This document shows positions 36,112 through 64,000 of a stretch of DNA of 64,000 bases, in pieces. The DNA is from Marsupella aquatica (taxonomy: Eukaryota > Plantae > Marchantiophyta). The number at the start of each line of letters is the position of its first letter. The first letter of the stretch is position 1. The notes beneath the pieces are model-generated. The model did no database searches, was not told the origin of the DNA, and worked only from the letters and a program-made list of their open reading frames with translations. A program made the position numbers and the translations under genes. The stretch lies in NCBI GenBank assembly GCA_973895155.1, contig OZ316893.1, positions 6,720,963 through 6,784,962 on the forward strand. Reading direction: 5' to 3'.

Positions 36112-36144
36112 CACTAGAAGAATCCGAGGTGAACTGAGACCGCA

Positions 36145-36430
36145 ATATATGACTCATTTTGGCTCATGTGACTTCATTGTGACTCAACGTGACTTGACCC
36201 ACGCTGTGACCCTTGGAGTTGCAAAAGTTGAGACCAAAAAATGGAAGTCACTATTGATACTGGGCTTTGCAACTTGCTTGATACCCATTTGTGACTGATC
36301 TGTGACTTTATTGTGGAGTCTAGCCTTGTTTCGACGTGACTACAATATGACTTCAGCGAGTCACATCGTAAGTCACATACATGACTTACCCGCATTCAAC
36401 AATGACTAGCGTGTGACTATTTAGTGTCAC
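36145..36430. repeat. CACTA subterminal repeats ((G/A)TGACT / AGTCA(C/T)), likely TnpA binding sites
   Basis: More than a dozen direct and inverted copies; similar motifs at 55560-55745. Confidence 0.7.
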
Positions 36431-36966
36431 AGGAGAGACCAATGGAGACCCTGGCCCACGTCACACAACAGAACCATTTGGGACTCTATATACTCATGTT
36501 TATAACTAATAAGGTTCACATGCAAGTTATAACCATGACTAATGAACATAGAGGGACAGTTCATAAGGAGAGAGAGCACTCGACATTACAATACATAGAA
36601 ACCTGATGTTCTAACTTTAGAAATATAACACATTGAATACAAGAAATGAACATAGCATGAATGACATCCACATGAAACAAAGCATCATATAAGCAGATCC
36701 TACATAAAACATTCATAAGAATTAAACACAATCACAATCTTGCTAAAAAATGAAGATCATTTGAATTCCAATGGAATAGTTTACAATGTGATCAATGTAA
36801 TTTAGACAAAACAGGAACTCATAATTGATGACTGTAGGATGAGATAACTGAAAGCACATGCATGATACTATGAATCTCCAAGAGGACATGATTCTTGTAC
36901 TGCTTCTTGACATCTAAAATCTACATAACATGACTCACACTACAAACAAATAATGGCATGACATTG

Positions 36967-42581: not shown

Positions 42582-42737
42582 CCTACTGGACCACAAAAAC
42601 ATGTCATCTATGGTCACCCCGTATAACACAATGCAACCACAATCACCAGGCATCCATCCAGACATCTGTGTTGCTTCAGAATTACTTTATTACACATCCT
42701 TCCCCTCACTAATGTCCATGCAAACAATTCACATTAC

Positions 42738-45700
42738 TCATGGCACAGGCACACTGTTGGCATCTGCATCTCTGAATTCGCCTCCTTCAGCAAATGCATC
42801 TACCCTTGTCACAGGAATGAAGTCCCCGGTATCATGAACTACAGGCACTTGGTCTGAACGCCGACAATCAAAGGCACTATGAGAGTGTAAATGAAACTCA
42901 AGGTTTGATCCTTCCATCCGACGTTGCCTGGCCTGTTTATGACACACTACACGCCAACCTGGGGAGTCTTCCACATCCAGGAAGAAAGCTTGCTCCACCT
43001 GACTAGGAAACACAAATGGCTCAGACCATTCGGGAAATTTCCCTCTGAAATTGGCCAGCAAGAAACCGTCGTTGTCTCTCTTCATGGTAGCCCTGTTACC
43101 AAGCCAATCCTGCCGCACCCATGAACCTTTCATAAGAATCACAGGACTGGACACCGCCCCATAGTCTAGAGCCCATATGTCAACTAATTCTCCCACATAT
43201 CCCATCTCCATCCAGGCCCTGTCGTGATTGTGGCTCTGTTGCTCAAATACAGCGATGAGCCCGCAGTCATTCGTCACCCTGTAGGCACTGTCACCATCCT
43301 TCACTCGGAAGTGATTCCCATATGCTCTCATCCGTTTGTAAGTCTTCACTTTCAGGCTAGGGGCATTAGACAGTAGGTAAACATCTGCATCCATGTCTGG
43401 GTGGGTCTCGTGATGCTCTCTAATTGCCACTCTGATCCACTCCATGAAACCTGGAAAAGTTGTTCCTGCAGTGGGATGGGCCGCCTTCAATGACTCATAC
43501 TCCCTGAACGAACAACCACACAGCATTAGCTTGGGTAAACATGAACAGGCTGAAGGAGAAAACCACACGAACACAACATTTAAGCTCATGAACTGGATTA
43601 TAGCACATGTATGCACTCACTGTATCCAGGGTTCCATCACCACAGTGTTGTGCAATACAAAGTCATGTGCCAAGTCTCTCATAGATATGGTCAGGTTCTT
43701 TGTGGTTGCAGCCCCTTCCAGTACTTCACCTATCACCCCTTCCTCCTCATCAGAATTCCACACCCTGGTCTTCACATGCTCATATTGTGCTATGTATTCG
43801 GTCAGAAATCTCAGAGTCTCATCCTTGATGTAACCTTTAGCCATGCTTGCTTCAGGTTTGTAATATGTTCTCACGTGACCTTTGAGTAGCTTCATGTACC
43901 GTTCCAAAGGGTACAACCAACGAGCACTCACAGGCCCAAATTGGTGTAGCTCTTCCACAACATGGACAAGTAGGTGGGTCATGACATCAAAAAATGCGGG
44001 AGGAAAATAAATCTCCAGGTCACAGAGCACCTGAGCGACATCTTCTGTCAGTTGTGGGAAGTGTGTTTCATCCCAAACCTTCACACAAATACGATGAAAC
44101 ACATCACTGAGTCGCATGATCACAGTACGAACAGGCTTCTGCAACAGGCCCCTCAGGCATAAAGGCAACACCTGTTGCATCAACATATGGTAGTCATGGC
44201 TTTTCATACTACCAAGCTTTCTAGTCATGATATGCTTCTTGAAAGCACTGCCATAGTTTGAAGGAACCTTCAAAGAACTCAACCTCTGCACAAATAGTTC
44301 CCACTCTGTATCTGTCAGAACATAGGGCGCTTGGTACTTCAAGAGCACATCAGCTCTGTGGGCATGTGGCCTCAACCAAAGATGGGGTTTCATTCCCCTC
44401 TGTTCAAGATCCAATCTCACTGAACCAGTGTCTTTCTCTCCACACAAGAATCTGAGTAGACTCTCACAAATATTCTTTTCAATGTGCATAACATCAATGT
44501 TATGTTTGCTTGGCTCAAACTCCTGCATCGTTGCAATGCAAAAGCGTCAGGAAATGCCTCAAGTTTAGTCTCTCTCTTCGAAATGAATGCACATGCTCTG
44601 AACCAAAACATGTATCCCAATTAGCATCAACTCCAAGAGGCTTACCCTCCAGTACTTGAGCTCCAAGTCCAATATGCTCAGTCTTTTTACACCATATCGC
44701 TTTATTGGATCACTCACTCCATCTTCCCTGCCCCCTCGTTTGATATAGTCATCCCTTAGTGCTCCCCACTGCCTGATCTCCTCTTTGGTCACTCGTGCCG
44801 GGGGTCCACGTTGCTCAATCTCATTGCCAAAGTGTGCAATCAGTGCCTGTCTTTCTCTGTAAGGGTGATCTGCCTTCAGAAAACGATGATGGCCCATGTA
44901 TATCACTTTCTGCAGGGCTCTGGAGTACTCACTGGTGACATTGCGCCCACAGATAGTACAAGCACAATATTCTTTTGTTGTTTGGCTTGATATCATCCCA
45001 TGGGCTGGGTAGTCAGCTATAGTCAGAATGACAATGGCTCTAAGGATGAATGGGTTTAACCTCCCAAGCCTCTGTAGGACATCATATGTGAGAACTCCTT
45101 CCTCCCAAAGCTTTCTCAATTCCTCCACTAGGGGAGCCAGAAACACATCTATGTTGGCAGATACAGCACTGTCTGGCCCTGGTATCAGTAGGACCATCAG
45201 AACAAAAAATCGCTTTGTAATCATCCAAGGAGGAAGGTTATAATTCAAAATAGTTACAGGCCAACACGAAAATTTGTTGTTCTTGTCTCCAAATGGGTTT
45301 ACCCCATCCAATGATAGCCCAAGTCTGACATTCCTTGGCTCAGCAGCAAATTCGGGATACATCTCATCTATGAGTTTCCATTGCCTTGAATCTGCAGCAT
45401 GTCGTTGTAGCCCATCATCACTTTTCTTGTCAGTTGCCCAAGTCATCATCTCCGAGATGGCACGGCTTCTGAACATCCGCTGAAGTCTGGGAATGAGTGG
45501 AAAATGACGAAGTACCTTGGCGGGAACCATAGACTTTCCTGAGTTCCGATACCTGTGCTTCCCACACTTAGGGCATGTCAACGATTCTTTATACTCCTTT
45601 CTGAAAAGAACATGCCCATCAGGACAGGCATGGATCGAATCATAGTTCAATCCAAGATTAGATATGCATCTTTTTGCCTCGTACATGTTCTTGGGCAAAA

Positions 45701-46469
45701 TATTACCATCTGGTAGCACAGTTGTTCGCAAGAATGCCAACAACTCAGAAACCAAAACGTTGGGGACATTGTGGTTGCCGCAAATGTTCAGGAACATGAT
45801 GACAAATCCCAGTTTAGAACATTTGCTACCGGGGTACAAAGACTTCCTGCCTTCCTGTATTTGCAGGGGAGAGCCAAACATCCCATCATGCCCAGGGGTT
45901 TCCTGCCCTATCTCAAACTCATCAAGAGGCTCTTCGACAGGGGGCACACTTGCATCTGCAGCCGTATCCTCTTCGTTGTCCAGCCCATCATGAAATGCAT
46001 CCAAGTCTTGGAAGATGTCTCTCACCATCTCTTCCACATGAATTCCTTTGTCACGTGGTGCTGCCTGAGCACCATCCCGTTGGAGAGCTGACAACCCACA
46101 GAGACCAGCTACAACATTTTCAAATGCACCAGGCAGAACCTCACTTGCCCGTCTTGCAGCATTGGCAGCATCAAATTCTAACCTCCACTCCTCGTCGGAA
46201 GAATCTTCCTCTGCAGGATCATTCCAAACTCGATGTCGTGGATCTCTTCCATGAACCGCGATATGCCGCCAAACCTCATTCAGACCCCTGGTACGGGATC
46301 CTTGGCAGATTGCACAAGGACATCTCATCCTACTGGCTCCTGAAAGTCTGGTTCGTAACCTTTCACGCTGCCAAAGCTTATTATCATGGCGTGATTCCCT
46401 TGTGGGATGATGCAAAGGCAGTGCCTGTGCCCTGGGCTGGGTCTGGGGAGGGTGGTGACCAGGGTGCAT
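42738..46469 (-). CDS. CACTA TnpD-type transposase (Transposase_21/DUF4218/DUF4216-like); join(46469..44646,44522..43621,43503..42738)
   Basis: Motifs CPCAIC, IHACPDGHVLF, FAAEPRNVRLGLSLDGVNPF, NYNLPPW, TIADYPA, HNIDVMHIEKN, MKSHDYH, FFDVMTHLLVH, WLYPLERYM and EPFVFPSQVEQAFF. Two GT-AG introns keep the frame and no stops are seen. The start and last exon are uncertain. Confidence 0.88.
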
Positions 46470-46901
46470 TGTAACAGGCTGGGAGCTCTGCAGTCATGGA
46501 CAGCAGTGAACAAGGATGCCTAATGGTGGTATTTGTGTTCCATATATCCCTGACTGTATCTGCCAAAAGAGTTAACATAACGTGTACTAAATTCTCACAA
46601 ACCCTAAACCACCCCAAAAGAAAAAACAGGTTCGCAAGTAGTGTACCTATTGTCAAGTGAATGACACAAAATTCCTAAATGTTGGAGGGTGTCACCACCT
46701 CCTCCGCTGTCCTCAAATGTACCGCCTCTGCATGTACGTTTACAGTGACACCCCCAGGCAGCAGGAAACAACAATCCGCCAACAGTAAAATAAGCCCAAC
46801 TGCCACCAACCATAACAAGGTACATTAGTTCAAAGATCACATTTATTTCAATGATCTGATTTATACAAAAAAACTTGTGTCCAAACTGATGCTACTACTC
46901 C

Positions 46902-47774
46902 TCACTCTGATTCAGAATCGCTAATGACCCATTCCTCACTTGTTGTCTCATAGTCCTCTCTGTAAGGATCCTGACCCTTCCGTGGCCAGGCCTCAAAAAG
47001 ATCATAGTCCATTGGGTTTTGATGCTTCCCAGCTGCTACTGATTCCACAAGCCAAGCATATGAAACCACAAACACATTATGGGACATGACATAAAAGTGA
47101 ATGTCTCCCTTCCCAAACTTGCGGCAGGCTTTGGGATATGACTTAGTAATGACATGAGTGGTGTCCTCTGTTATATTCTCCTCCACTGTCCCACCTAGGT
47201 CAAGCACTGTGGACTTGTACACTTTGCACTTAACCTCTCCAATTCCCGCCTCCACAAATACCATGCTCAGCCCTTTCAGAATGGGGGTTGGTTGCTTCGT
47301 CTCCTCAGCCAACATACTCTTCAGCCTTGTAGAGCTCTGTCCTTTGTTGAGTACAGGTCCATATTGGAGATCAGCAAGCCGTGCCTTTGTTTCCCAGACT
47401 TCTTGTTCAACCCAAGCTGATGCAGTAGCTTCTTCATCCTCCCACAACTCATATTGCTCAGTATCCTGTACAATCTTATGTGCTATGGAATCTGTGATCC
47501 AAGAGGCCTCAACTACTTTTAGGCCTTGCTTAGTAATTGCAGAATTCATGTAGGACCATGACCACTTCTTTATCACTGATAGCCATGTCCCTGCAACAAC
47601 ATGTGTAGTCTCTGGAGTGATGTCCTGAACTACAGTGCCATGGAGCTCAGAGAATCGTTTCTGTATAGTTGGCCAATGCACTTTGGTCAACCCATGCTGG
47701 CCATGGACCAAAATCGCTCTGACCCCTGTAAACACTGCTGGGTGGTCACACTTTCTATGTTTACCAGGCTCCAT
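46902..47774 (-). CDS. Tandem BRCT-domain protein (~290 aa), CACTA cargo
   Basis: Two repeats: FTGVRAILV...LHGTVVQDITPETTHVV...VVEASWITDS and LKGLSMVFV...LGGTVEENITEDTTHVI...VVSYAWLVES. Intact ORF. Confidence 0.85.
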   Translation of the reverse strand: MEPGKHRKCDHPAVFTGVRAILVHGQHGLTKVHWPTIQKRFSELHGTVVQDITPETTHVVAGTWLSVIKKWSWSYMNSAITKQGLKVVEASWITDSIAHKIVQDTEQYELWEDEEATASAWVEQEVWETKARLADLQYGPVLNKGQSSTRLKSMLAEETKQPTPILKGLSMVFVEAGIGEVKCKVYKSTVLDLGGTVEENITEDTTHVITKSYPKACRKFGKGDIHFYVMSHNVFVVSYAWLVESVAAGKHQNPMDYDLFEAWPRKGQDPYREDYETTSEEWVISDSESE

Positions 47775-48367
47775 GTACACACACCCTACGTGATGACAGT
47801 GAATTTTGGAAGAATGGGTTCACCTGACAATACAAGGACAACAAAATTCCTGCTTTTTGAGTTGATCTGGCCCACTGGTGCTCAGGTCCGATTTTGATAG
47901 GTACAAGGGATATGTGAACAATACGTACTAGGCACCTGCACGGATGCAGGACATTGTTTGAATATATACTACAAAATCCATATCCGTGGTGAAATGAAGT
48001 GCAACCAACTTGTCATGGCACATACATATTTTGTTGTAAAGGAGGATACATTCAAATGACAAACTTATAGGGAAATTTGATTAATTGCATGCCTGATAAT
48101 TTATACGCTTACAACTTAGAAGTCCTGTTTTAATTTAGCAGTCTGATGAAAGTGTTTATGAAAATGACCACTCAGCCTAAATACTTCCAAGAAGGCTTGT
48201 AAGGATAAGTTTGTATAGGCATGTACCCAGCCACTGACGCCAGAGCACAAGATAAGTGCTGCCTATATAAACTCGCCTACCCAACTCCTTTTCAAAATTG
48301 GAATCTCTGCAATCTCAAAAAATAGTACATCCACATCAGGTGCACTGTGCATGTACAATGTTCAGCT

Positions 48368-49048
48368 TCACAGCCAAGATATGTGATCTCTCACAGGAGT
48401 GCGCGAGGTAGGATCAATGGCATGGCGATGACAATAAAATATCCATCGATCAACACCATGTGCAGAGTGATCATAGATTTCTCTGTCACAAGCATAACCC
48501 TTTGCTTGATGATCTTTCAGGCAATGATAGTGCCACATAGTGGGACACCTAGCACAGTGGACTATGTCAGTCCAGTAGTCATCATCATGCTCACCACATG
48601 CCTTGCACCTATGAAGTGGGCAAGCTGTGGCATGAGCAGGCAAACACTCAAAACAGAAAAATCTCACACAAAAACGGTCTAGACATTTCCTAACATTTGC
48701 TGCAGCATCAACAGAGCCCTCATAGGACCCCAACTTCCCACACTGTGCACACTTAGCCTGCTTCTCCAAACAATCAGTGCACATCCAGTCTCCCTGGTGT
48801 GTTGACGGGAGGCCCACCCCTGGACAGTTGTTTTCTGTAGCAAGGTCAGACTCCGGGTTGAGGTGGAAATGCCTCATGCAAGGGCCCTCACAAATGACCA
48901 GGGCCCCACCATCGTCACAAATGGCACAACAATGAGCTGCCTTCTGGAAAATCTGACTTGCAGAGAAGTTAGTAGCATCTGCCCCAAGTACACCTGTGTT
49001 TCTCACCTCTGTCACACGCTTTTTGGCTTGAATTTTAGGCCGTGCCAT
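48368..49048 (-). CDS. EDM2/NSD-like tandem PHD-finger protein (226 aa), CACTA cargo
   Basis: CAICDDGGALVICEGPCMRHFH...CTDC...CAQCGKLG...CPLHRCKAC...CARCPTMWHYHCL...YCHRHAIDPTSRTPVRDHI follows the layout of the plant EDM2 PHD region. Confidence 0.8.
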   Translation of the reverse strand: MARPKIQAKKRVTEVRNTGVLGADATNFSASQIFQKAAHCCAICDDGGALVICEGPCMRHFHLNPESDLATENNCPGVGLPSTHQGDWMCTDCLEKQAKCAQCGKLGSYEGSVDAAANVRKCLDRFCVRFFCFECLPAHATACPLHRCKACGEHDDDYWTDIVHCARCPTMWHYHCLKDHQAKGYACDREIYDHSAHGVDRWIFYCHRHAIDPTSRTPVRDHISWL

Positions 49049-49059
49049 GCCTGCGCATG

Positions 49060-49203
49060 AGATAGACTCTACAATTTAGCAGACTGCACAGAAAGTAAAA
49101 TATATTTAGCATTTAAGGTACAAAGGCATTTAGATAGACTCTACAATTTAGCAGACTGCACAGAAAGTAAAATATATTTAGCATTTAAGGTACAAAGGCA
49201 TTT
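49060..49203. repeat. Perfect 72-bp tandem duplication
   Basis: agatagactctacaatttagc...caaaggcattt occurs twice. Confidence 0.9.
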
Positions 49204-49818
49204 GCTACTGCAATGAATTGGAATGGCCACACAAGGATGCAGAGCACACATACTTTTGGTATGTTGAGTCCACACACAAAACTGATCCCCTAATACAATT
49301 TCTCCACCAACACCTCAATTTTAATTGTGGCTATGATTCACCAAAGGAGATCTGCAACAACATTTCATGCATTTGAATCACATACAATAGTCGTGACATG
49401 TAAAACAGGCATTCTTCGAAGAGGATTGGTATGAAGCAGTGTCATAAGGGTTGAAATTTATACATCCTAAATAGGTTATGATAGTGGCTGAGACAAATAA
49501 GTGAGGCATAAATCATTTTGCATATTATCACATGGCCCATTAATTCATTCAACGTTGCAATGTTCACCAGGTTAAAGCAGTCATGAAAGCAGTCTTTCAA
49601 TAGAGACTTTTATGCGAGTTTGCTAGCCTCTTAAATTAGGATATTTTGCTTAGTGCAGGCATAATAGGATATAAGTTATGTACTGTTGACCCTAAACCCT
49701 GGACCCAAAATTGCTCATACATCAAAATTTTAAGTAAATATCCTCTATGTTGAAGTCAGAGTGTTAAGCTATAGGTCAATGGTATCTGGTCTGTGCATGC
49801 GGTGTGACAAGTGGTCCT

Positions 49819-50283
49819 CTAGAGCATGTGATCCAAACATGTGTAGACACCAAAGTCACCGGTGGTGGGGTCTGGGAGGGCAGGACAAGTGACATCACCA
49901 GGCACACTGCAGGATGGCGAGTGGTTCCAGATGATACATTGTGCTCTGTGCAAAAATCGGCATCCAAGAGAACGGTCATCCAATTCTGGGCCAGAAGCCC
50001 TACAGGCAGGACAGTCATATTGGCAACTGTGTACACACCCTTGGCACCTAATTTGTGGCGGGTCATGTACAAGAGACACAAATACCAAGGATGTCGGGAA
50101 GGGTACTGAAGCAGGTAGAGGCTGGCTGTAGTTGTTCCTGGAAACAACAGGGTACTCAAAGTACCATGCAGACTGGGCTGGAAGGATCCCAAGTCTGACA
50201 TACTCAAGGCGCAACATCTCTGCCTTGCGTGCAAGTCGTACATGTTCAGCGTTGCGGGTCCTCACCATAAGTGTTGCTTTCAT
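49819..50283 (-). CDS. Hypothetical Cys/His-rich protein (154 aa), CACTA cargo
   Basis: ATG-started intact ORF co-oriented with the other CACTA genes; CQGC..CQYDCPAC...C..H..C..H...C pattern. Confidence 0.45.
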   Translation of the reverse strand: MKATLMVRTRNAEHVRLARKAEMLRLEYVRLGILPAQSAWYFEYPVVSRNNYSQPLPASVPFPTSLVFVSLVHDPPQIRCQGCVHSCQYDCPACRASGPELDDRSLGCRFLHRAQCIIWNHSPSCSVPGDVTCPALPDPTTGDFGVYTCLDHML

Positions 50284-51279
50284 TGTGATGTCCTCTGTTC
50301 ACGTCCTTTGATGAGCAAGGTGAGCAGGAGGTCGACTTGCCTCGCCAACAGCAACCACCTAAACTAATCAGTTCCCACTCATTGTCTTGGTTCCAACTAC
50401 AGGTCATAGTATACACATAGCATGAAACGTGCATAGTACATATTTGATTCTGAGTTTATGAGTTTCCTAAGACAAAGAGCTTGGTGATAAACCCATATTC
50501 TCGACGGACATGTATATCAATCATATTAAACTCCTGTTTTTTCATCCAGAAAGACCGAAAGTCTCACCTTGCAGGTTGCAGCAGAGAGAAAATTCACTGG
50601 TTGTCGTGTTGTGCAAGTGAACCTCCACTGATGCCCCGGTGTAGCCCCTCAGATGCAGGTGACACTTACCAACTCCCAAGTTGCCTGGTCTAACAGAAAA
50701 TGCTTAATATATCTTCAGAACTTTATAGAGCAAGTACATGATCACATACTTCTGGATCTATTCATATTTGGAACTCTTGCCAACTACAACTCCCATTATG
50801 CACAAGCTCACATCAACAGAGAAAGATACAGAATGCATACTTACTATGGCTCTAAGCACCTTCACTACCTTGTTGAACCCAGTCCTGAAGTCTTTTCAGC
50901 GTGTTTGTTGTGCTGTCTCCTTTGGCACCCAACACCTTAGTCCTTGATGTAACAGAATGCGATTTTACAAGTTAGATGCTTTGGAACCTTCTATGGTCTT
51001 AGCTGAATTGATGTCATCGTAAGTGGTGAAAGACAAGGAAGACGAAAGCTGGTTGAAGAGCTGTGGACAACACACTAGCATGAAGTGCTTCAACCAATCC
51101 ACTGCCAAACGGAACTCTTACACAGTCACATTCTTTTAGTAAACAAAAACTCAGTCAAACTTCAGAATCAAAGTACAGACTCTGAAGGACCAAAGGAGGA
51201 TGTTGTGAGTTTCTCTGTTGTTTAATGTGTTACCCTTCTAGTTTCGAAGTTAGCAAATGCTGAATAATGTGTCTACCAG

Positions 51280-51622
51280 ATCTTCGAAAAGAAGCCCACC
51301 ACAATTAAGAACTTCGGTATCTGGGTCCACGTATCAGAGTCGTACAGGTTATCACAACATGTACAAGGAATATTGTGATACCACAAGAAACGGAGCTGCA
51401 GAGCAGATGTATGATGAGATGGCTTCTTGTCATAGAGTTCGGTTCCCTTGCATCCAGATCATGAAGACTACGACATTCCCTGTCTCTCTGTGCAAGCGAG
51501 AAAGTACCAAGCAGTTCCATGATTCAAAGATCAAGTTCCCCTTGACGTACTGCAAGATTCAACCTCCATTGCGAAAGCTAAAGACGACTTACAAGGCCAC
51601 CAAGCCCAACACAATTGTTTGA
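51280..51622 (+). pseudogene. RPL18A: Captured last exon of 60S ribosomal protein L18a (eL20), frameshifted
   Basis: After a cag| acceptor it reads [15 protein letters not shown], then a +1 shift, then [38 protein letters not shown]...[18 protein letters not shown]...[11 protein letters not shown]. Confidence 0.9.
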
Positions 51623-52808
51623 GTAGTGCGGGTGCAGGTTCCCAATTTTGAGACAATTTGGCTCATTTTATGTCCCGAGGGAATCCTGGAGTTTATGTAT
51701 TGAGTTTCTAGGTGAAGATGCTTAATATAAGGAAATTCAATTATCACTTCGTTCCCAACTTCTATTAATTGAAAATACACAAGCTGGAAGCAAGAAGACA
51801 AGCCACAATCTAGCATCTTAGCCAAACACAATCGTCCCGACAAAGCAAAACTCAGCTGGACAGAAGTCACTCGGATCCACAAAAAATTGAAGATTCACCT
51901 CCAAGCCGGAGGCTGATCACTTCAGTACAGCAGCTTCTAGACGGAACAAACTCTGCTCAGCCCCACAGAAACACAAATGTTAAGGCTCCAAGTCAGAGCT
52001 CACAAACAGAAACTCAGATAAATAACATTCAAAATCTGTCCAGGTTTGTGCAAAGTGTACATATTCATTCTTCTGGAATGAACACGCAATGCATACATCA
52101 CCTAGACACAGTCATTATAAATCATTGGGCGATTGGGGACCACTAAGCAGGTGTGTTCCTATTTCGAGGCTACAAGAAAGGATAGAGTGACACCAAACTC
52201 AAGAGTACACCAAAAGAAAAACAGCAAGAACCAAAGTCAATCATGTGTGGATAAACTGCACATGGGAAGTTCCCCTGAAGAAGCATCAGTTGCTAACATT
52301 GTCACCCGAACCACACCTAGTTTATTACCTCAATGTCTTCAGCCTCAATATCCAATCCTCAGCCCCCTGGTGCTTCCGTGTTTGTTCTGAAAATTTCTGT
52401 GATGAAATAATTATTCAATACATTCAATAGGAGTTCAGACAATCTGAAGAGGACTTTGGACTTGAATGGGGGACAGCGTGGCCATATAGTTATCCTTGTG
52501 GCCTTCAGCTACGTGTCTCACGCTGAATTTCACTTTCCAGTTTCGAGAGTTGTGAAGGTCTAGTTTTAGTAACTTCCTCCTGACTCGACTTGGGAGCATT
52601 CTCTGTATTTGCTAGCTTGTAGTTAGCTTTGACTCCTTTCAGCTTAGTTGACGACCCTCTTGAGATATTAACAATTAGAACAAACACAAGTTGTCAAGAC
52701 AGATTCCACCGGAGCAAAAAGTCCAAAACCAGGTGAATGAAAACCTAAGGAGAGTCCATAAGAACGAAAGTAGGAAGGCAGGCGCACGGGCCACCGAGAA
52801 AAGTAAAG

Positions 52809-52969
52809 GATGCATGTCATTAGTGGGGAGGGATCTTAGCAAAAGCAGGGGAAAGCAAGGGAACTTGCGGCTAAAATCAGCTGAAAGATGCATGTGATTA
52901 GTGGGAGGGATCTTAGCAAAAACAAGGGAAAGCAAGGGAACTTGCGGCTAAAATCAGCTGAAAGATGCA
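52809..52969. repeat. ~78-bp tandem duplication
   Basis: gatgcatgt.attagtggg(g)agggatcttagcaaaa.ca.gggaaagcaagggaacttgcggctaaaatcagctgaaa occurs twice. Confidence 0.85.
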
Positions 52970-55779
52970 CAGTTCCTAGAAATGTAGTGAACCTTAAGGT
53001 CGTCTGTTCACCCCCCCACCCCATCGCCGGGCACAAGGCATGTTCTGATATAGGGAGGAGCAAAACAATCATGTCAAGCAAGAAGTGTGGAGAGACCAAT
53101 CTGTAAGCAAAAATAGGGGAGAACATACATACATCAGCAGCAACAGGAAACAAGAAAGATGAGTTCAGAAAGCATCTTAGGGTCGGGGACATCACTGCAA
53201 CACCGGGACTTAGGATATGACTTGTTCTTAATCTGTTGATAGCATCCGGTAGGCCGGCAACCCATGGCAAAAGGGCAGAGCAGCAATAACAGTTTGAATC
53301 TGACGGATGAAGCTCCAGGCAAATGAGCTCCAGGCGATTGGGTGCATGATTGAGCAGGCGATTGTAACAGCAGGCACCAGGTAATTTAAAGGAAGCAACA
53401 TTCGGCAATGGACCTAGGCAGCTCACAAATTTTGCTTAGCAGCGATGTCACTAGACCCTAAACACGCAATGCATACATCACCTAGACAACTATACTTGCA
53501 GTCACGAGGTGAGTCCGCGTCGATAGGGGATTGCAGCCTTACCTGTGCCGATGTAGCACCAAGCCGCCCTAACTGAAGCTGCGTAGCAATCCGCAGCAAT
53601 CGCTCAATGCAAAACAAGTCCCCGGTTGGCCTTGCAGCCCGATCATCCACCTTCAACCCTGCCACCAAGCAATGAGCTCTCCGCTGTTGCTCACCCTAAA
53701 CCTTCAACACTCCCGCAAAGTTGTGTCTACCCGCAAGATTGGGTGCGTGATTGATTCGGCGATTGTAACAACAGGCAGCCGCAATCGGTCGCAGGTCATG
53801 GATACACAAGCTCCAATGTGCTCCCTTTAGCTGAAACAATACCAGTTGTCGCTCACCACCAACACTTTCAGCAACAACACATATTTGTTGTAGTCCGCAC
53901 CTTAAACCTTAGCCATGGGGTGGTCAATCAAGTTCCGCAATGCCTAAAACACCGACCACCTGACTTACATGAAATGTGCACACAGCTAAGCTCACCTGCA
54001 GCTCACGCCAACCACATTGGGACAATTGAAGTGAATACTGCCATAGCTGAACTCGACTCCTCGTGACTCTTTCGCGCCTCCGTAGACTGCCTTACTCACA
54101 GTGCCCAACGCAAAAAAAGGCCCGGTCAATGTTGCAGCCACGATGATCCACCTCACGCTAGATAGTTGGCCTTCAAGATCACTCCCCACTTTCTTGCAGC
54201 TCCCCGGCCCTCCACAGCTCCTCGTCCATGGCAGTGCTGCAAATCAATAAGCTCTTGGTTGTAGCTCCTCAGTTGTCGGTCACAGCTGCAACAACAGAAG
54301 CTCGTAACCTTACGATGGAAACCCGGAAAAAGCACCTTCCTGCTTGCCAAAGAGCGACACTGTCAACACTCAACGAACGACACTTTGACTCAGTTTCTCC
54401 GAATAGTTTTGGAAACAATTCGTAGACTGAGAACGAGGAATAGGGTTGTGGTATGCATTGGACAAGAAGTCAGTGAGTGAGGTAGTCGACTCTCGGCCAC
54501 AAAGAGCAGAAGACAAATCAGACGAGCATGAAGACCCCGACAACAATGACATATCCAGACGACGAGCAGGGACTTACGCAATAAAGTCTAGCCTTGATCA
54601 AGCACTGCTATTGCACCTGCCTGCCATCACCATCTCTCAAGCGAGAGTGAAGTCCGTAAAGCTCCTTGCACAAAACCCTTCACAAAACCTTCAGGCACGA
54701 TGAATGTCCCCGGCCGACAGCAGAATGGACAAGCTAGTTTTTCCCTAAACCGAGTTCCCGCGCACATTCAACTCAACTTTGCACTCTGCTGCCGTGTTAA
54801 ACAAAACCCGCGCACCCTAAACTTGTGTCCAAAGGCACACTCACGCACATTGAAGTGGAGACATTGAAAGCACAAAAGAGACACAAAAGTCTATGATTTG
54901 CCTAATTAGTTTTTTCCTTTGAAACCAAAGGACTTACGCAATAGTTATATGTGGGGTGAGTGGTTAGTCACAACTTTGAACCACCCCCTTTGGTGAAAAT
55001 GTGGCCAAATAGTCAGGTATATATGACCCCACATTACCATTATGATAAGTACACTTTTTTAGGGTTGGGGTAGTGAAGAGCTGATCATATATATTTAAGT
55101 TGGACATTTAAGTTGGACTTATATTGAACATGAACCATGCATTGGTTGTCATATATGAAGGGGGCATGGGAAACATGAAGGTTTATGGGGCATGGCAATA
55201 AGTAAACCCAACCTAGCTACATGTGAGGCTGAAATTGGGTGATAATTAAGCACCTTTTTGGCACGACCAGAAGACGGCGATAGAAAAATTAGAGATTGAC
55301 TACAAAAAGCATTAAGTTAGGTTAGCAAGCTTTGACAAATCCTTTGTGCAGTTGAATGGGGCTGGGGCGCGCTTCATGGTGTCTAAATGGGGGCAGGAAT
55401 AATGATGGAATACTCAGTAATGGTTTCAAATGGTATGACCTGACTATAATTAAATCTATGTGGGATGACATATGGTGTATCCAAAATCATATGTATTGGG
55501 TTAGATCCCATACTTTAAGGTTGAAGGGCTCAAATGTTGTGCTCTCATAAGTTGTACTCTAATGTAGAGTCGCTTGTATGACTTCAACCTAATTGCCTTA
55601 ACTGAGTTATAGTTACAACTTCCCTAAAAGTTGTAAACATGACTCCTCAAAACTTCACCAAAACTCAGTCAAGAAGGTGTGACTAACATGACACCAACAA
55701 CTTTGGAGTCGCTGTTTCATGAAGGTCTCGGACAAGTCACGTTCTTTGTGGTCTCAGAAAGGGTGGGTTTCTTCTAGTG

Positions 55780-57585
55780 ATTGAGGAGGATGATGATGAG
55801 GTGGCTACTGCACATGCTGCTGCACGTATAGCAACACTTTCCAGCAACGTGGATCATCAACCAGAGGTGGTACAACGGCTCCAAGCAGCCCATGGACCTT
55901 TGGTGGCTGCATTGCGCAAATTTGAGGATCTTGGGCAGCACAATGGCCAACCAATAGCCCCAATCTTGAGCGCACCAGTTACATGGACTCCTCCTTCAGA
56001 TGGCCTTACATTGCTTGAGCTTTTTGGTGGCATTTCTACAGGCCTGGAAGCTCTCCTACAGTCTGGTATGGTGGTGAAGCAGTACATCTATGTGGATATT
56101 GATCCAGGTGCAAGGCAAGTGTCTGAATCCCGTCTGCTGGAATTTTCAGAGCGATTTCCCCAGCAGTTTCCACACAGTGCATGGAAGTCTGCATTTTCTT
56201 TCTTTCCTCCAGATATCCAGCTTGTCCAGCACCGGCACTTAACCCTTCTTGGCTCCCTTGATTTGATCATAGCTGGTTGGGAATGCCAAGGGTTGTCAGC
56301 TGCTGGTCACGGTGCTGGACTGCATGATTCTCGTTCTGGCCTTTTCACAGCATTGGTTCAGATTCTCACCTGGGCTCAATCCCTTCATCCTGCTATTGGT
56401 TATATCATTGAGAATACTCCATCTCAGTTTGACCAGCGTCCACAGGTCAAAGAGGATTTCAGTGTGGTCCAACACCACTTGGGACCACCCCTTCTCATTG
56501 ATGCCGTGCATTGTGGTTCTTATGCACATCGTCTTCGTAACTTTTGGACTAACCTTGCACCACCTTCCTTGTTGGAGTTAGCTCTTCACCACACATCCAG
56601 GGACACTAACCTCACAGTGGACCAGATTTTGGATCCTGACAGCTCTTGCCAACCAATTACACGGCAAGAGCCAGCACCTTGGTATCCAGCCAATACCATT
56701 GGACAGCCCCGTGCTGCTTGGCCTACATTTGTATCCTTTCCAGGTGCACATGCCTTTCAGGGTGATGGTCCTGGCCTGGTTTATCGACATTCTACCGGTA
56801 CTTGGGATGAACCTAGTCCTGAGGAGAGAGAACGGGCTATGGGCTTCCAATCCGGTACTACAGGTCACACCCAGATCACCAGGCTGGCCAGGAATGCTTT
56901 ACTTGGCAGGGTAATGGATCTTAATGCTCTCACTTGGCTTCTGGTCACTTGCATCCTTTTTCAGATGTACATTCATCCAGCATCTGGAGTTCCAGCTCTA
57001 CCACTCCATGGTGCTGCTACATGGCATCCCGACCAGGTGCACTTACCTCTATTCAACACTCACCGCTTCAGTCCAAGTGTTGGGGGGGAGGAGGTCCCTT
57101 GTAATGTGGCTGATATTATTTCTGAGTTTCATGGTGTGGACCAATCCAGATCAGCAGGTACAACAGGCCTTGGAGAGGCCTCATCACCTTATCAGCAGCA
57201 TGCTAGCAGCTTGGACAGTGGAGAGGCTAGCACTTCTGGCTCTTCAAGTACGAGTACATCAGGTCCTATTCCTAGTGTTGCCAACTACACATTCATCATG
57301 GGCAACCACCTGAGTAAAAGACAGAAGGACCAGCTGCTGAATTTGCTCCTCAAGCATGAGAATGTGTTTGCTTTCTCTATGAAGGACTTGGGTACGTGCA
57401 AGACTATGCAGTTCTCCATTGAGTTGGCTGATGAAACACCTATCTTCAGGCGGAGACACCGTTTGAGTAAGCATGAGTGGTAGCTGGTGGATGAGAGGTG
57501 CCAAGAGTTATATGAAGCTGGCCTTATTTAGCCATCTACATCAGATTTTGCAGCAGCTACAGTGATGCCAGCAAAGAAGGATTCC
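55780..57585 (+). pseudogene. Element B pol continuation: DNMT3-like C5-cytosine methyltransferase domain (~56005-56940) followed by the start of gypsy RT
   Basis: Motif I LELFGGISTG, II YVDID, IV AGWECQGLS, VI IIENT, VIII AHRLRNFWTNL, IX ERERAMGF, X ARNALLGR. Then LLKHENVFA...FSIELADETPIFRRRHRLS..E and AGLI*PSTSDFAAATVMPAKKD, with stops at 57481 and ~57529. Confidence 0.88.
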
Positions 57586-60500
57586 TGTGATGCCTAGACA
57601 GGAATCACTCTTCCGGTTAAGTGGGTAAAGCAGGAAGGCACCCTAGGAACACCTTAGTATAGTGACAAAACAAGGAAAATATAAACAATTAGGGGCAACC
57701 ATGGAACCCGGGCAGAGGCCGGAGGTAAGGCTGAGGGTGAAAACCCGATTAGGGTTAGGGCGCGTTAAGCGTCGGCGGCTAGGAAGGATCAACGGGAAGA
57801 AGGACCGGCAGAGGAGAGGGGTAAGGAGCGCTTGCAGGAGATGGTGGCTCATTTGCGAGCACGAACTAGGCAGACGACTACGGGAGGCCAACTACTGTCA
57901 GCTGCTTAGGCAAGCACTCAGGGAGAGAGTAGATACCGACGATCGACCTAAGGAGGGTATGAGCAACGTCAATCAAGCAGCACATTTCTGGGGATGCCTG
58001 TTCGAACGGGCAACTGAGTACATCAAGACTTACGAGGACGAGGAGTCAGAAAGGGCAGCTCGAGAACGGCAGGAGCTCGCTCGATTGTGGGAGCTGCAGA
58101 AGACGGCTTTCTTAGGAGGCGAACTCATCAAGGACGAGTTCCTGTGGACGCCTACTTCCAATCAACTCGACGATCTTCTGTTTTGCAAAGACAGCGTCGT
58201 CGGCATCCGAGAGGCCATCAAGAACTGCAACGACATACACTGGGAATTAAAGGGTAGCACGGAAAGGTGGACCCAGGCAACGGTGCTAGGAGAAACCTCC
58301 ACGGCAGCAGAGATGAAGAGGAAGGGAGCCGTCAACGATGAAGCCACCCCGGCAAAAAGAACGAGGTCGGCGGCACCAAAGAAGCCAGCCGAGCAGCAGA
58401 GCAGGAGGCAGGGAGAAGCCGAAGAGGAGGAGGTCGATCCCATCAAGGCCATTCCAACCAGGGATGACACCTGGAAGGGCTGGGCGGCAACCCTACCGGT
58501 GGAGGTGCAACTACATTTTTCACGGGAGGAGGATGCATGCTTTACGGCCATGCAGACCAAGAAGTACCAAGGCTTCATGGCCGGATCCGGCTTGGAGGCC
58601 TTTGTAAGATTACCATGGCTGAAGCCGGAGGTACCGGAGTCAGACCTATTAGAATTCGTGGGGTCATGGGAACCCGAGACCAATTGCACGAGGATATATG
58701 GGAAGGATTTCTATCTTACTCCCAAGGTGATTGCCGAAGTGTTTGGCTTGCCGATGGGCAATAAGACCAAAGTTGATACCAGGAAGACCTTGCCTGACAA
58801 GGAGTTCCGGTCGTTCCCCGGGCCATCAACGAAGAATGGCTTCTTCCAGAACACCTGCACCAACCCGCACATAGGAGAGATGATCGACTTCTTGCGGGTG
58901 ACCATGCATTGTAACTTGCCGAGGGCAGAGATCGGCAAGGCACAGGTCTATCTAGCAGAAAGGCCAGACCCAAGCCGGGACTACAACGGGTACCTCCTCA
59001 ACCAATTGAAGAAGATCTTAAAGGAGGAGCAGCAGGTAATCGGCATGGGGAGCGTGTCGCGGCTTGGCTATCACATGCCGCTGTTGTGCCGGTATGCCAG
59101 AGGTCAGACTTTTGCCCCGGTACTTCCCCTGCAGGTAAGGGCACCCGAGGAAGCTCCAACGCCGAGGCCGTTGGCTGAGAAGCCTCAACCACCTGTTAGT
59201 CCTACGATCGAGCAGGTGTTTAGGCCCAGGAAGGAAGACTTGCCGATGCAGCAACCAGGCATGCAGAGTCTGCTGAAACTATTGGAGAAAGAAAAGAAAT
59301 CGGCATCGGCAACAACAACGGCAACGGCAACAATGCAGGACACTACTACAGAGGTAGGCCTACACCGGCTCACAAGAGAAAACCCCTTTGTTGGAGACAA
59401 GGAGAGAATCAGGCCGGAATCCAAGCCAGGTGTTCGAATGTACGTGGGAACCTCAAGCTCCGAATCTGAGGCAGAATTGCCTGAAGCTCCTACCGACGAA
59501 GAGGAGAGGGAGAAGCTGGATGTCCAAGAGGTAGAGGAGGCAGTGGAGGACTGCAGCCATGATAATTCCGGCTATGGGTCGGACCATCACGTTCCAGGAG
59601 TAAGGACCTGTGGCCGGTTTGTCCCCACACTTCCAAGGGTAGTGCGAGGGGACCCCAACCAGCAGAGTAGCCCTGAGTCTCCCCCACCAGATGTTGCTCC
59701 CCCGAGCTTCGACGGCATAAAACAGACGGTGCAGGAATTTCAGGAGTGAATCAAGCAGGAGGAAGAGGCCGCCCTGGCTAAGGAAAAGGATTTACCAGGA
59801 GGAGATTGGCCGGAGGACATCAGGCGGCTAGCCGAAAAAGGAAGCAAACCTCTAGCCACGATTGAAGAGATCCGCAGGACGGCTTGGGAGCAGAGGCCAC
59901 GATGGGCGATGCCGATCACTTCTACTTACTCCACCTACGCTAAGAATAGAGCCATGGAGTATGGTGAGATGTGTGGGGAACTTGCGCTCGGCATCTTTGG
60001 AGAGGAGTTGGAGATAGGACCCTTTTTCCATAGGGAGCAGTTGGAGAAGCACCAATTAGAAGAAGCGGTGGCTTTAGAGAGAAGCAAGAAGGACGAGGTC
60101 ATTCGGCGGCTTAGGAGGATGGGAGCCGAGATTGAAGATCTAAGGGCGGCCAAGAAAGCCCAAGATGAACTGCGGATTAAACGACATGAGCTGAACATCA
60201 TGCAGGGGCAGTTGGACGCCGCGCAGGCTGATAATCAGAATATCAAGGATAAACTGACTCAGACGCAGGAAGAGTTGGCCGACACGATCAAAGAGAGGGA
60301 GAAGTGGAAGCAAGAGCTGAAGAATACAGAGGAGGCCCACATAACAGCCAACAGTCGGGCCATGGCGGAGACCCAAAGAAAGGAATGGGCGTTGAAAGGG
60401 GAGCTCGAGAAAATCCGCGGAGCCCTTGAGCTGAAGGAGGTCGAGTTAGGGAAATCCTATCAAGGGATTATGGCGCTACAGCAGGAGCTTGCGTCCCTGA

Positions 60501-62212
60501 CGGCCAGCTTCAAGGCCGACCTAAGGGAGAAGGACGAGATGCTCGAACAGACTTACGCCAAGATGAACCAGATGGAGTCTGTCATCATTGCAGAGCTCGA
60601 CAAGGAGCTAAGAGCAACCTAGGAGGAGAGGGCTACCTTGAAGAAGGAATTGGAGGAAGCCCACAGGGAGCAGGAGGAGGCCAAAAACGAGCTGGAGGGG
60701 GCACGTAAGGACCTGGATGAAACCCAAGAGGAGTTGGAGGAAATCACGAGGAAGATGGAGAACCTACAGCGGCGGGCCGACAACCAAACAGAGCGGCTGA
60801 AGAAACAAGCCGCAGTATTTAAATGCTTAGCTGCAGCAGGTCCATCTCCCGTTGGGACAAACCAGTTACCAGGGGTGGTAATTGCCGAAGGACAAGCCGC
60901 GTCAACTGCACCAGTGCCGGAAGTAAGTGGGAAGGGGAAGGGACCAGCTGCCGAGCCACCAACGAAGAAGAAGCGGAAACCTCCAGGGTCAAGGAGTAAT
61001 ACGACTTCACAGGCCGTGGTGATCAAGGAGGTAGACCCAGCACCGACCCCAGACAGGGTCACGGCTAAGGATCCAACTACCCTAGGGGAAGGGGAGGCCG
61101 AAGCCGAGGGAGTGGCTGAGGCCAAAGCCGTGGGTATTGCCGAGGCCGGTGTCGAGGCTGAAGCCGAAGGTGGACCCAGTCAGGCCGATGGAGAGTTGAC
61201 TCGGTCAAGGGCAGGTAATCTGTCAGTAGGCGGGCCAACGGCAGTGGCTGAGGAGGAAGTGTTGGGGGCGTCCATTGAGGATCCACCACCGGTGTCGTGA
61301 CGGTGCAAGGGCGCCGTTCCTTTTAGGGAGGGCGGACGTGGAGGGAGGAGGCGTGAGTGGGCAGGGCGGGCGCGGATCTCCACGTTTAGGATTAGGATCA
61401 GAACCAGGAGCGGCCCTGACACTTAGCTTAGTGGGATTGCGGTCCCACTGGTAGGAGCAACACTTGTGCTCCTGCCTTGCTGTACATAGGTAGATTTGGG
61501 CAAGTAGATTACTGTTAAGTAGATTAGGCTTACGATGCAAAGAATGGCGGATCCACTACCAGGATAAGTACCTGGGCAGCGGGGAGCTCAGGGCCTCTTC
61601 TTTAGCAAGTTTTTAGTTTGCACCAGCCGGGCTGGGATCAAGTAGTACGAGAAGCTCTCGGTTAGTCATACAGTGACCCTTGTGTATATTCATGTTTCCT
61701 CATGCCTAAGAGCTGAATAGAGTTGGCCTCACGGCTTAGTTCGCAGAACTTGTGTATGAGATGTACTGTTTGTATGACAAGTGCATGGTATGACTCAGTC
61801 AGAATGAGTCATTTTGCTATTTGTGTGTCGCATTAACTTGTGTGAAGAGTGCCCACATCAACAGAAGGAAGGAAAGTAAGCAGGGGAGTGAGAGTTGGAT
61901 GTGTCGAGCTGAGAGAGGTCTTAGCGGCTTAACCAAGCCTATTGGGGATCATTCCGGCGGCGGAATCCAAACATACCTAACAGGAAGACAGGGGAAGACA
62001 GGGGAAGGCCTATATTAGGCCGGCTACGTATCTCATGACCCGATGAAGGATCTGTCCAGTATATGTGTGTAAAATGTTAATAGTAGTAGTAGAAGGTTAG
62101 CAGCGTCCCATGCCGCTAAGCCGCGGAAACGGCCTCGCCAAGCACGAAACCTGCAGGAATCGGCTTGAGCTGGGGGGTTTCTTGGGTTTAGGGAGCCATG
62201 GGACGCACCACA
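57586..62212 (+). mobile_element. Family A 5' LTR, full length (4627 bp)
   Basis: TGTGATGC...GCACCACA, the same termini as the TSD-flanked solo LTR, followed by PBS and gag. Confidence 0.93.
57701..61300 (+). pseudogene. LTR-encoded ~1199-aa accessory protein (two in-frame stops in this copy)
   Basis: ORFs 57662..59749, 59909..60622 and 60638..61300 share one frame; start context gcaaccATGG. It has a central LEF...RIYGKDFYLTPKVIAEVFGLP segment, a long coiled coil and an NLS-like KKKRK. Confidence 0.85.
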
Positions 62213-62216
62213 TTTT

Positions 62217-62234
62217 TGGCGCTAGATGGAGGGG
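62217..62234 (+). promoter_or_regulatory. Primer binding site complementary to tRNA-Asn 3' end
   Basis: TGGCGCTAGATGGAGGGG, 4 nt after the LTR, is one mismatch from the complement of the plant tRNA-Asn end (CCCCTCCTTCTAGCGCCA). Confidence 0.8.
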
Positions 62235-62281
62235 GCATTTCTTAAGCCGTGAGATATGAAGTTAGAACGGAAGCGTAGGTA

Positions 62282-64000
62282 ATGACTGACCTTACGCCGA
62301 GGGAAGAAAGAGTGATTCAACGGGAGAGAGCTCGACTGCAGCAGCTCGCCGGGTGGCATGATACACAGCGACTGAGAGGGGCAGAAAGAGCTGGTAGCTC
62401 CGAAACTGGAAGTGGCATCGAAGAAGACATACCAGAAGAAGAGTCGGTAAGGAGAAGTGAGTCTCCAACCGACATGGGGGAACCAGAGGCACGGCCAGAC
62501 GAGAGGCCAGGGACCAGATTGAGCCAGCGGTCGCGCATACATTACAAGGCATTTCATGGGAGAGGAGATGAGGATCCGGACGAATGGTTGGATGATTTCG
62601 AGGGAACCGCTGCAGCAAATGGAGAATCGGCCATCAAGATGCAGATTCTTCCCGGCCTGTTCAAGGGTGAGGCTAGGCCTTGGTACAGAGCATTAGATGT
62701 GGAAGATCAAGCCATCTGGGATATCTTCAAAACACTCTTTGTTAAGGAGTTTCGACCCATTGGAACTTCAGAACTAGCAGTGCTGAAGTTGGGACAACTT
62801 CGGTTCAAGGAGAACAAATCCTTCAGGAAGTTCTTGCAACGCTTTCAGAAACTGGTAAGACGTACAAAGACCAATGCATCTGAAGGTATGCAACTTCAAT
62901 GGTTGGTGAATGCTTTGCCACAGAAGATGAGTTTTGCAATTAGGAAGGAGAACCCGGAGACTTTAGCCGAAGCAATTAAGGATATTCAATTATACATTAA
63001 TGCAGATATCACAAGCCGGAAGAAACAGCTTAAGTCTGAGAGTTCCTCATCAGAGGAGGGATCACCCCATAAGAAAAAAGATAAGAAGAAGAAACATTCC
63101 AAGAAGTCTAGAAGTGATAAGTCAAGCTCGGATAGTGGGAGTAGCAAGAGTGAGTCATCTTCTAGTTCTGAAGAAGAAAAAACTAGGAAAAGGAAGGGCA
63201 GAAGGAGAGGGAAGACGAAAGTCAAGATGGAGGCTAAGCCACCAGATAACATCGTAGCCCTTACCGAGCAACTTAAGGCTATCATTGCAGAGGTAAAACC
63301 AAAGAAGAAGGTAGTACAGGAGGATAGCTCTGTATGGTGTGCCTTATGTTATAAAACCGGACACCATAAAGATGCGTGTCCTAAGCTTAATACTAATCAT
63401 GTTCGGCATGTGGCCGAGATCAGACCATGTCAGGGAGAAGTAGAGTACTTTTTGGGAGATGCCGCTGATAGTGTTTTCGGCATCAGTGAGACTGGAGCAC
63501 GAGACCTATCCAACAGACCTGCATCTCTGTGGTCAGGGTTAAGGAACAATCCAGGAGAGATGTATCCTCGGATTATTCAGAACCCGTCAGTACCTCCTAG
63601 GCCGAATGTGCAAAGATTTGCGGCGTGCTATAATTGTGGTCAACCTGGCCATTTTGCTAGAGAATGCCCGAATGCACGCAAACAGGGTGATGGACAACCA
63701 GCTTAGCTATGTATGGGATGCCGACAGGAAGGTCATATGCTAGGGCAATGTCCTACTTGGTTGGCAGGCCTGGCCGCAAATCATAAACTTTTGTCGGTCA
63801 AGATCTTACCGCCAGGTACTACCCCCGGAGGAGTTCAAATCAACCACATCGAACTAGGATGGCAAGAGGATGCCGAGGCAGAGTTCGTACCATCTGATGA
63901 TGAGGCCGAAGCCCTATCAACCTTCTCAGAGGAGGATTTAGATCATGATTGCTACCGGGTCTCTACTCGATCTACCAGAAGGAAGGAAAGGTGGGATGGG
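62282..64000 (+). CDS. Family A gag (runs off window; in-frame TAG at 63704)
   Basis: FHGRGDEDPDEWLDDFE...LFKGEARPWY...; CCHC knuckles CALCYKTGHHKDAC and CYNCGQPGHFAREC, plus CMGCRQEGHMLGQC after the TAG. The frame stays open to 64000. Confidence 0.9.

Follow-up and report, generated by a model that had tools for sequence, protein, structure and literature searches.

A long terminal repeat of a Ty3/gypsy element in Marsupella aquatica that appears to hold a large gene under purifying selection

Introduction

Can the long terminal repeat (LTR) of a plant retrotransposon hold a gene? Plant LTRs are treated as non-coding, and the extra open reading frames (ORFs) of such elements are filed only 5′ or 3′ of gag-pol. 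This question is raised by a 64,000-nucleotide window, by which we mean the whole stretch of DNA analyzed, from the liverwort Marsupella aquatica (GCA_973895155.1, contig OZ316893.1, forward-strand positions 6,720,963 to 6,784,962). In it, a 4,627-bp LTR of a Ty3/gypsy element (57586–62212, plus strand; the main copy) contains a single sense reading frame of 1,199 codons. We find that 57586–62212 is almost certainly an LTR that holds a gene under purifying selection. A fuller reading, to which we give a little less than an even chance, is that this accessory gene likely lies in U3, the unique 3′ region, and likely encodes a nuclear, oligomeric, PMD/VANC-like anti-silencer acting in trans.

A selected LTR gene of 3.3–3.6 kb would be the trick of mouse mammary tumor virus (MMTV) sag performed in a plant retrotransposon, and several times larger. 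It would make a solo LTR a gene rather than a scar, would offer one possible explanation of giant LTRs, and would allow the role of plant extra ORFs to be tested on one 4.6-kb fragment in which promoter, gene and likely target lie together.

Limits and copies of the LTR

Comparison of the window with itself supplied the list of copies of the long repeat. Besides the main copy, which is the 5′ LTR of its element, these are a solo LTR at 40386–42284 (plus strand; 99.0% identity to main), a 3′ LTR at 28832–31257 that carries codons 1–484 of the frame (copy 2; minus strand; 95.6% identity) and the oldest copy at 25024–28831 (copy 1; minus strand; 87.6% identity), which holds codons 272–1199 plus the non-coding end and is interrupted by the copy-2 element. 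The main, solo and copy-2 LTRs begin at the identical base (57586, 40386 and, on the minus strand, 31257) with unrelated DNA upstream, and all four copies stop at the identical base (62212, 42284, 28832 and 25024) and then diverge. The main LTR has TG...CA ends with an inverted repeat in 7 of the 8 terminal bases, and the solo LTR is bordered by a 5-bp target-site duplication (TSD), CTCCG.

Replication signals adjoin both edges. Four T past the end of the main LTR begins a tract resembling a primer-binding site (PBS) with a TGG start (62217–62234, plus strand), a candidate match to tRNA-Asn; a test of its identity through viral tRNAs returned nothing (12 loci examined, no tRNAs). It is followed by the gag of the main element (62279–64000, plus strand; capsid and zinc knuckles, PF03732 E 4.5e-10 and PF00098 E 6.8e-9), which is cut by the window end, past which the internal part of the element extends. 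On the other side, the copy-2 element provides the end of reverse transcriptase (RT), the RNase H (RH) and the integrase (INT) at 31246–33227 (minus strand). Directly after the RNase H-integrase frame, and 3 nt ahead of the LTR start at 31257, lies a polypurine tract (PPT; 31261–31270), which together with a 21-nt motif ahead of it is found within 31258–31300 (minus strand). As pol reaches the PPT and its frame stops at LTR bases 10–12, an extra gene would find no room on the 3′ side of the internal region.

A metagenome scan with the integrase confirmed 2 of 96 candidates, a relative with 60% integrase identity (L001) and a distant one (L002). L001 and the copy-2 element agree in the 21-nt motif, in the PPT and over the first 5 bases of the LTR, and diverge thereafter. 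The original prediction had placed the LTR limits by the TSD of the solo copy, the PBS and the PPT, and these limits hold, with three left edges, four right edges and L001 now agreeing on them. The 5′ LTR (main) and the 3′ LTR (copy 2) compared here come from different insertions.

The 21-base motif (31270–31295, minus strand; 897–917 in L001) is identical in the two elements despite an integrase likeness of only 60%. In copy 2 the last part of the integrase frame runs into it, while in L001 it comes after the stop. Scans with it gave no viral matches and two bacterial chance matches without a retroelement protein, and Rfam gave no matches.

The reading frame and selection on it

Counted from its first ATG, the frame spans 57701–61300 (plus strand), or 3,600 of the 4,627 bp (77.8%), in agreement with the 78% originally estimated, and is broken by internal stops at 59747 and 60620 (codons 683 and 974). 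Each of 200 base shuffles of the LTR gave at least 19 stops per 1,199 codons (mean 29). Between main and copy 1, all six indels within the ORF are multiples of three, against three of seven in the non-coding tail. Copy 1 has four stops, at codons 488, 505, 714 and 1104, none of them at the codons of main, and the final TGA (25928–25930 in copy 1) is common to both; the earlier claim that copy 1 retains the frame with stops at other codons is therefore correct.

The original prediction had also proposed the non-synonymous/synonymous substitution ratio (dN/dS) between these two copies as a test, with a value near 1 counting against a gene. Over 903 codons we obtained a dS of 0.385, a dN of 0.101 and a dN/dS of 0.26 (bootstrap 0.21–0.33), falling to 0.087 in a core domain and 0.19 in a coiled coil. 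Of the five other frames, four gave 1.0–1.4; the fifth, which is antisense and has its third positions in common with the gene frame, gave 0.32. When neutral evolution was simulated under the substitution spectrum seen here, with CpG sites treated separately, dN/dS was 0.71 with a minimum of 0.52, and none of 500 runs was as low as the real value. Judged from these sequence comparisons, the LTR frame is a protein-coding gene under purifying selection, present whole in the 5′ LTR and as codons 1–484 in the 3′ LTR.

Several observations weigh against this conclusion. The dN/dS of main and copy 2 (0.38) is borderline, with 24 of 500 neutral runs as low. Codons 1–90 and 1046–1199 lie near or above a ratio of 1 (~1.09 for the latter). 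None of the four copies is intact, copy 2 and the solo LTR having one frameshift each, and the window contains no complete two-LTR element. The comparison of solo with main is uninformative (dN/dS 0.48; 0.1–1.85).

That all four copies are broken, with most of the gene deleted in two, is what a captured passenger would predict, that is, a gene that was functional elsewhere and, once copied into the LTR, began to decay. We regard this as very improbable. It was already weakened by the neutral simulation; the signal of selection lies between two LTR-resident copies at a dS of 0.39, the final stop is retained amid diverged bases, and the breaks are specific to each copy, as expected if they arose after insertion.

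The protein may begin downstream of the first ATG. Against copy 2, codons 1–86 contain 2 synonymous and 10 non-synonymous differences and codons 87–484 contain 23 and 25 (Fisher p 0.058), and the outside homolog P0008 begins at a Met matching Met87. Because the first 86 codons are without a sign of selection and P0008 starts at the equivalent of Met87, a protein of ~1,113 residues is possible; the first 86 codons may be leader, and the remaining ~1,113 codons would take up 72% of the LTR. Of the ‘complete ~1200-codon gene’ first described, the whole frame of 1,199 codons stands; completeness does not, the frame being broken in all four copies and its start perhaps being Met87.

Short copies are deletions of the long form

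Two of the four copies are short, which invites the explanation that the true LTR measures ~1.9–2.4 kb and acquired the gene later, or that the long form is an artefact of assembly or nesting. The solo LTR lacks the equivalent of main 58274–61009 (2,736 bp), joined at a 5-bp microhomology, and copy 2 lacks that of main 59153–61350 (2,198 bp), joined at an 8-bp microhomology with one mismatch. The missing intervals thus have different ends, and pieces of the gene are retained in both copies. A later insertion would give one common junction; since the deletion ends differ, the joins are at microhomologies and the oldest copy, copy 1, is long, the long form is the original and the short copies are microhomology deletions of it, not the reverse. 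No duplication surrounds any insert and the long copy has no internal repeat. Within the window, this deletion structure refutes a short true LTR with the ORF as a secondary insertion, the outcome that was to have overturned the original prediction, and we consider it scarcely credible. The further claim that a solo LTR leaves a gene behind holds only until deletion, as both of the other copies with a left edge have lost most of the gene.

As to how the gene came to lie there, L001 indicates that the position of the PPT beside integrase is old. This favors entry of the gene straight into the LTR over relocation of the PPT from after a stop codon, with the reservation that L001 extends only 72 bp beyond its integrase match, too short to settle the matter.

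Position of the gene within the LTR

The gene is followed by a non-coding LTR end of 912 bp (61301–62212, plus strand), a candidate for the genomic promoter, R (the repeated region) and U5 (the unique 5′ region). Divergence between main and copy 1 falls sharply at about main 61327 (61320–61386): 74 of 324 four-fold sites differ in the gene and 46 of 866 sites differ after 61330, and beyond the step copy 1 has indels in common with copy 2. At the full divergence of copy 1, neutral expectation is 11 stops, against the 4 observed. The four stops point to a decay of a few per cent since insertion, enough to explain the greater part of the difference seen in the non-coding end; copy 1 thus resembles a recombinant whose gene came from another subfamily. 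Copy 1 is in this respect a mosaic, with a gene 23% diverged at four-fold sites and a non-coding end 5% from the young copies.

Such a step would be the mosaic expected if U3 and R-U5 derived from different co-packaged RNAs. As first-strand transfer joins the U3 of one RNA to the R-U5 of another, the border of U3 and R would fall just past the gene. Strong conservation might likewise produce the step, as might a switch of template anywhere along the RNA. In the non-coding end we found no repeated target-like motif and no over-represented 7–9-mers, which weighs against the fuller reading as an anti-silencer. On balance, genomic RNA probably starts in the last ~890 bp of the LTR, so that the gene would be U3 sequence, carried once, after pol.

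A second candidate promoter and leader lies at the LTR start (57680–57958, plus strand). It contains the only TATAAA of the LTR, at 57680, and tandem telobox-like hexamers at 57749–57760, both conserved in three of three copies, as well as donor-like GT sites at 57724 and 57820. Were this TATAAA the sole promoter, the gene would be the first cistron, upstream of the PBS, in a long R or leader, and gag-pol would be expressed by splicing. The uniqueness of the TATAAA, the donor-like sites that follow it and the lack of conservation in copies 1 and 2 of a TATA-like word at 62011 are in keeping with such a layout, and maize commonly has long, spliced transcripts contained within LTRs (PMC13192763). 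It would, however, require ~4.5 kb of minus strong-stop DNA, and the 3′ end signals of the 5′ LTR would have to be bypassed; the step at 61327 also suits a U3/R border better. There is also a second promoter-like zone at 61330–61400, GC-rich with GC-box-like and tandem telobox-like words. We consider this layout unlikely and prefer to place the gene in U3.

All seven tandem telobox-like words of the window lie in these LTR copies, a count that serves as a lead only, the hexamer having been picked after it was seen. A possible leader intron from the donor-like GT at 57724 to an AG at ~57910 would splice out the 22-codon upstream ORF at 57841, making Met87 the first start.

The encoded protein

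From the alternative start at Met87, the predicted protein comprises an N-terminal conserved domain (aa 87–210; 57959–58330), for which P0006, P0008 and P0010 are outside homologs, the core globular domain to which the dN/dS of 0.087 applies (aa 244–475; 58430–59125), an SMC-like coiled coil (aa 783–1035; 60047–60805) and a basic patch, KKKRK, resembling a nuclear localization signal (NLS; aa 1089–1093; 60965–60979), all on the plus strand. The coiled coil matches TIGR02168 at E 6e-6, far below the cut-off of that model; the region is 44% E/K/Q/R, and its heptad signal is weak (p 0.05–0.10). There is no transmembrane helix anywhere in the protein (maximum Kyte-Doolittle 19-mer 0.84), and thus no env-like feature of this kind.

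A HMMER search of 1.84 billion representatives gave 21 matches at E≤0.001 to residues 46–475, the best with 41% identity (E 1e-48). The matches delimit the N-terminal domain and the core, neither of which corresponds to a Pfam family. The liverwort Calypogeia fissa is the named source of 2 of the 10 homologs looked up (CAM6090539.1 and CAM6122807.1), and in the distant homolog P0028 the core is again accompanied by an SMC-like coil. An alignment (A1) was assembled from 17 of the 21 matches, P0028 and two window copies; it leaves out three N-terminal matches and P0013, a spurious match with bacterial Ig repeats.

As to the family of the core, a single source, the ESM Atlas, placed it with unnamed plant clusters at 0.89–0.90 and then, at 0.87–0.88, with one cluster in which 82% of members carry DUF1985 and another in which 14% carry PMD. 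In the structure model from A1 there are helices and a beta hairpin, and one helix closes with a VFGLP motif, an arrangement that we take to resemble the pattern of PMD, DUF1985 and Transposase_32. Set against this likeness, the Atlas family scores are below 0.9, short of what the Atlas itself requires for anything beyond a lead, with 134–146 of 256 features in common where 170 is typical of true members; neither the query nor the 20 alignment members gave a Pfam match for the core, PF10536 and PF09331 giving none at E≤5; and the A1 model, from 20 sequences, is weak, with a predicted local distance difference test (pLDDT) of 53.6, the single-sequence fold reaching 34. We lean slightly toward membership of the core in the PMD/DUF1985 group, with VANC-like proteins.

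Other searches returned little. No match to the A1 model was found in viral structures, by Foldseek in the PDB or by VIA-align, where the best Z was 4.5 on one helix pair; because the model is weak, none of these results is informative on the fold. Sequence searches of the PDB were empty. Word-index searches for homologs gave nothing for region 240–480 against shorter proteins or for A1 against longer ones, and A1 against proteins of 45–1378 aa recovered only its own member P0018. None of six window proteins was found by exact look-up in the protein collection, and a metagenome scan with the core confirmed none of 46 candidates.

Comparison with known systems

Like the LTR gene, MMTV sag (and Naf) is a whole accessory gene inside the LTR, in both LTRs. 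MMTV is a retrovirus, and sag encodes a membrane superantigen of ~320 aa, about a quarter of the length of the LTR gene, with no sequence relation to be expected. It has its own U3 promoter, P2, according to the available portion of PMC9412291.

The extra ORFs of OTA elements (PMD plus coiled coil in Ogre/Tat, the 3′ ORF of Athila, TRP28 plus SMC in Retand) resemble the LTR gene in their non-chromovirus Ty3/gypsy host, in a globular domain with an SMC-like coiled coil after it, in an NLS and in purifying selection weaker than that on core enzymes. In the accessible part of PMC6317226, TIGR02168 matches 19 known extra ORFs. The OTA extra ORFs differ in sitting internally, 5′ or 3′ of gag-pol, whereas the LTR gene lies beyond the PPT, and, unlike them, the LTR protein has no match to PF10536, PF04195, PF03078 or PF20167. 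Extra ORFs are placed only in the internal region by one review (PMC7264820) and, as far as its accessible text goes, by the Neumann survey (PMC6317226). Ustyantsev 2015, in the sections available, describes the Tat-lineage extra ORFs as PMD plus coiled coil and reports none in moss and lycophyte Tat elements (PMC4408406); partial texts also record extra ORFs with PMD or Tr28 plus a coiled coil (PMC4408406, PMC11963269, PMC11728184). The LTR was originally called giant, and its 4,627 bp bear this out; the size is not new, LTRs of ~5 kb being known in the group from what is available of PMC6317226.

VANC proteins of VANDAL elements and the host PMD proteins of the MAIN/MAIL type offer a lead-level likeness to the core, and likewise combine a globular domain with a coiled coil. 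VANC is also a transposon-encoded accessory factor; it differs in being sited in eudicot DNA transposons, no target motif array was found in the LTR here, and homology of the cores is a lead only. VANC is described as a DNA-binding anti-silencer, its DUF1985 domain is reported to be structurally like the PMD of MAIL1/MAIN, and MAIL1/MAIN are said to counter Polycomb at telobox-containing promoters, in the portions available of bioRxiv 10.1101/2024.09.27.615353 and PMC13547354. Retrosat2, RIRE3 and RIRE8, rice Tekay elements, combine LTRs of more than 3 kb with a selected extra ORF. They are chromoviruses, and the accessible text describes ORF0 as separate and upstream of gag-pol and does not state it to be LTR-internal (PMC3485330).

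Our literature search found no gene inside a plant retrotransposon LTR, which does not prove absence from print. The type of protein is thus familiar; the new part is its address inside the LTR, known mainly from a mouse retrovirus, and at unusual size.

Proposed role

Reverse transcription places sequence found between the PPT and R of the genomic RNA in both LTRs, and solo LTRs retain it. The gene would ride the genomic RNA as a U3 passenger and be duplicated in this way, and a full element would then carry the two gene copies originally proposed. With its own promoter in the first 100–370 bp and the 3′ end signals of the LTR, each LTR would be a self-contained transcription unit; by analogy with the U3 promoter of MMTV sag, we put an arrangement of this kind at an even chance. 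The coiled coil would oligomerize the protein, the basic patch would import it into the nucleus, and there it would counter DNA-methylation or Polycomb silencing of the LTRs of its family in trans. This last role is proposed from the analogy with VANC and MAIL1/MAIN, and we hold it tentatively, as possible rather than probable.

The first ATG lies 115 bp into the LTR and ~100 nt past the pol stop. A U3 gene might instead have no promoter of its own and be expressed only by way of the 3′ LTR, from a subgenomic, spliced RNA like that of env or nef. The protein would then serve replication and not silencing, in the particle, in nuclear import or in integration targeting, and the 5′ LTR and solo copies would be silent passengers. 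Long coiled coils are common in structural proteins, and splicing is the reported route of expression for sense 3′ extra ORFs (PMC7264820). Against this stand the TATAAA and telobox-like hexamers at the start of the LTR in all three copies that retain it, the lack of a transmembrane helix, the NLS-like patch and the PMD/DUF1985 leads, which suggest chromatin. We give expression by splicing a minor share of the probability.

Taken to its furthest extent, the proposal of a self-promoted anti-silencer would make each LTR a complete gene of this type, swapped between subfamilies by strand transfer, and part of an old, overlooked class of accessory genes of non-seed plants. We think this unlikely to be true in full. 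If it were, LTR-LTR recombination, the usual deletion route of the host, would leave an active counter-silencer in every solo LTR; strand transfer between co-packaged RNAs would swap the gene as a U3 module, a swap that copy 1 resembles; and the layout would have been overlooked since pipelines seek extra ORFs only between LTRs.

Classification of the element

The order RT-RH-INT, with no chromodomain after INT, identifies a non-chromovirus Ty3/gypsy element. The extra RNase H between RH and INT that marks Ogre/Retand is lacking, RH being followed by the integrase zinc finger in one frame. The 5-bp TSD, on the single solo copy, differs from the 4 bp given for Phygy/Selgy in the available text of PMC6317226. 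For Athila the same source (Neumann 2019), within the part available, lists a 5-bp TSD, no extra RNase H and a tRNA-Asp/Asn PBS; here the TSD is 5 bp and RH and INT have no extra RH between them, the region before RT lying outside the window. The TSD and the lack of an extra RNase H after RH would fit Athila or the liverwort ‘Tat Z2’ group but neither Ogre/Retand nor Phygy/Selgy (PMC6317226, PMC13468544).

The surrounding window

The window is plant DNA, in which a DUF688-like gene (7804–10926) is accompanied by transposons nested one inside another. The copy-2 element interrupts copy 1, and its own RT ends at ~33227, cut by a retroelement that bears a methyltransferase. This retroelement in turn has been entered at 57585/6 by the main element and is divided in two by a CACTA element, in which the solo copy sits. 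The order of ages given by this nesting fits the identities of the copies to main.

The methyltransferase retroelement (33229–36111 and 55780–57585, plus strand) encodes, in a single pol-like run, gag, protease, a C5 cytosine methyltransferase domain (PF00145, E 2.9e-5) and the beginning of RT. No LTR is visible ahead of its gag, which starts ~15 bp past the junction with the copy-2 element. Retroelements of this kind are described from dinoflagellates and the charophyte Klebsormidium in the available part of PMC5890265; the one here sits in apparent land-plant DNA. The CACTA element (36112–55779, minus strand) measures 19.7 kb, has a 3-bp duplication and contains Tnp2 and Ptta transposase genes. 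Its cargo includes a twin-BRCT ORF (46905–47819) and an NSD-like PHD-finger ORF (48371–49075), that is, chromatin-reader cargo.

The host gene (7804–11415, plus strand) is intronless, with 1,040 codons, a weak DUF688 match (E 8e-4) and 162 further open in-frame codons after its stop. Short tandem duplications of 66–146 bp occur at 13838–13970, 15318–15707, 49060–49203 and 52806–52969.

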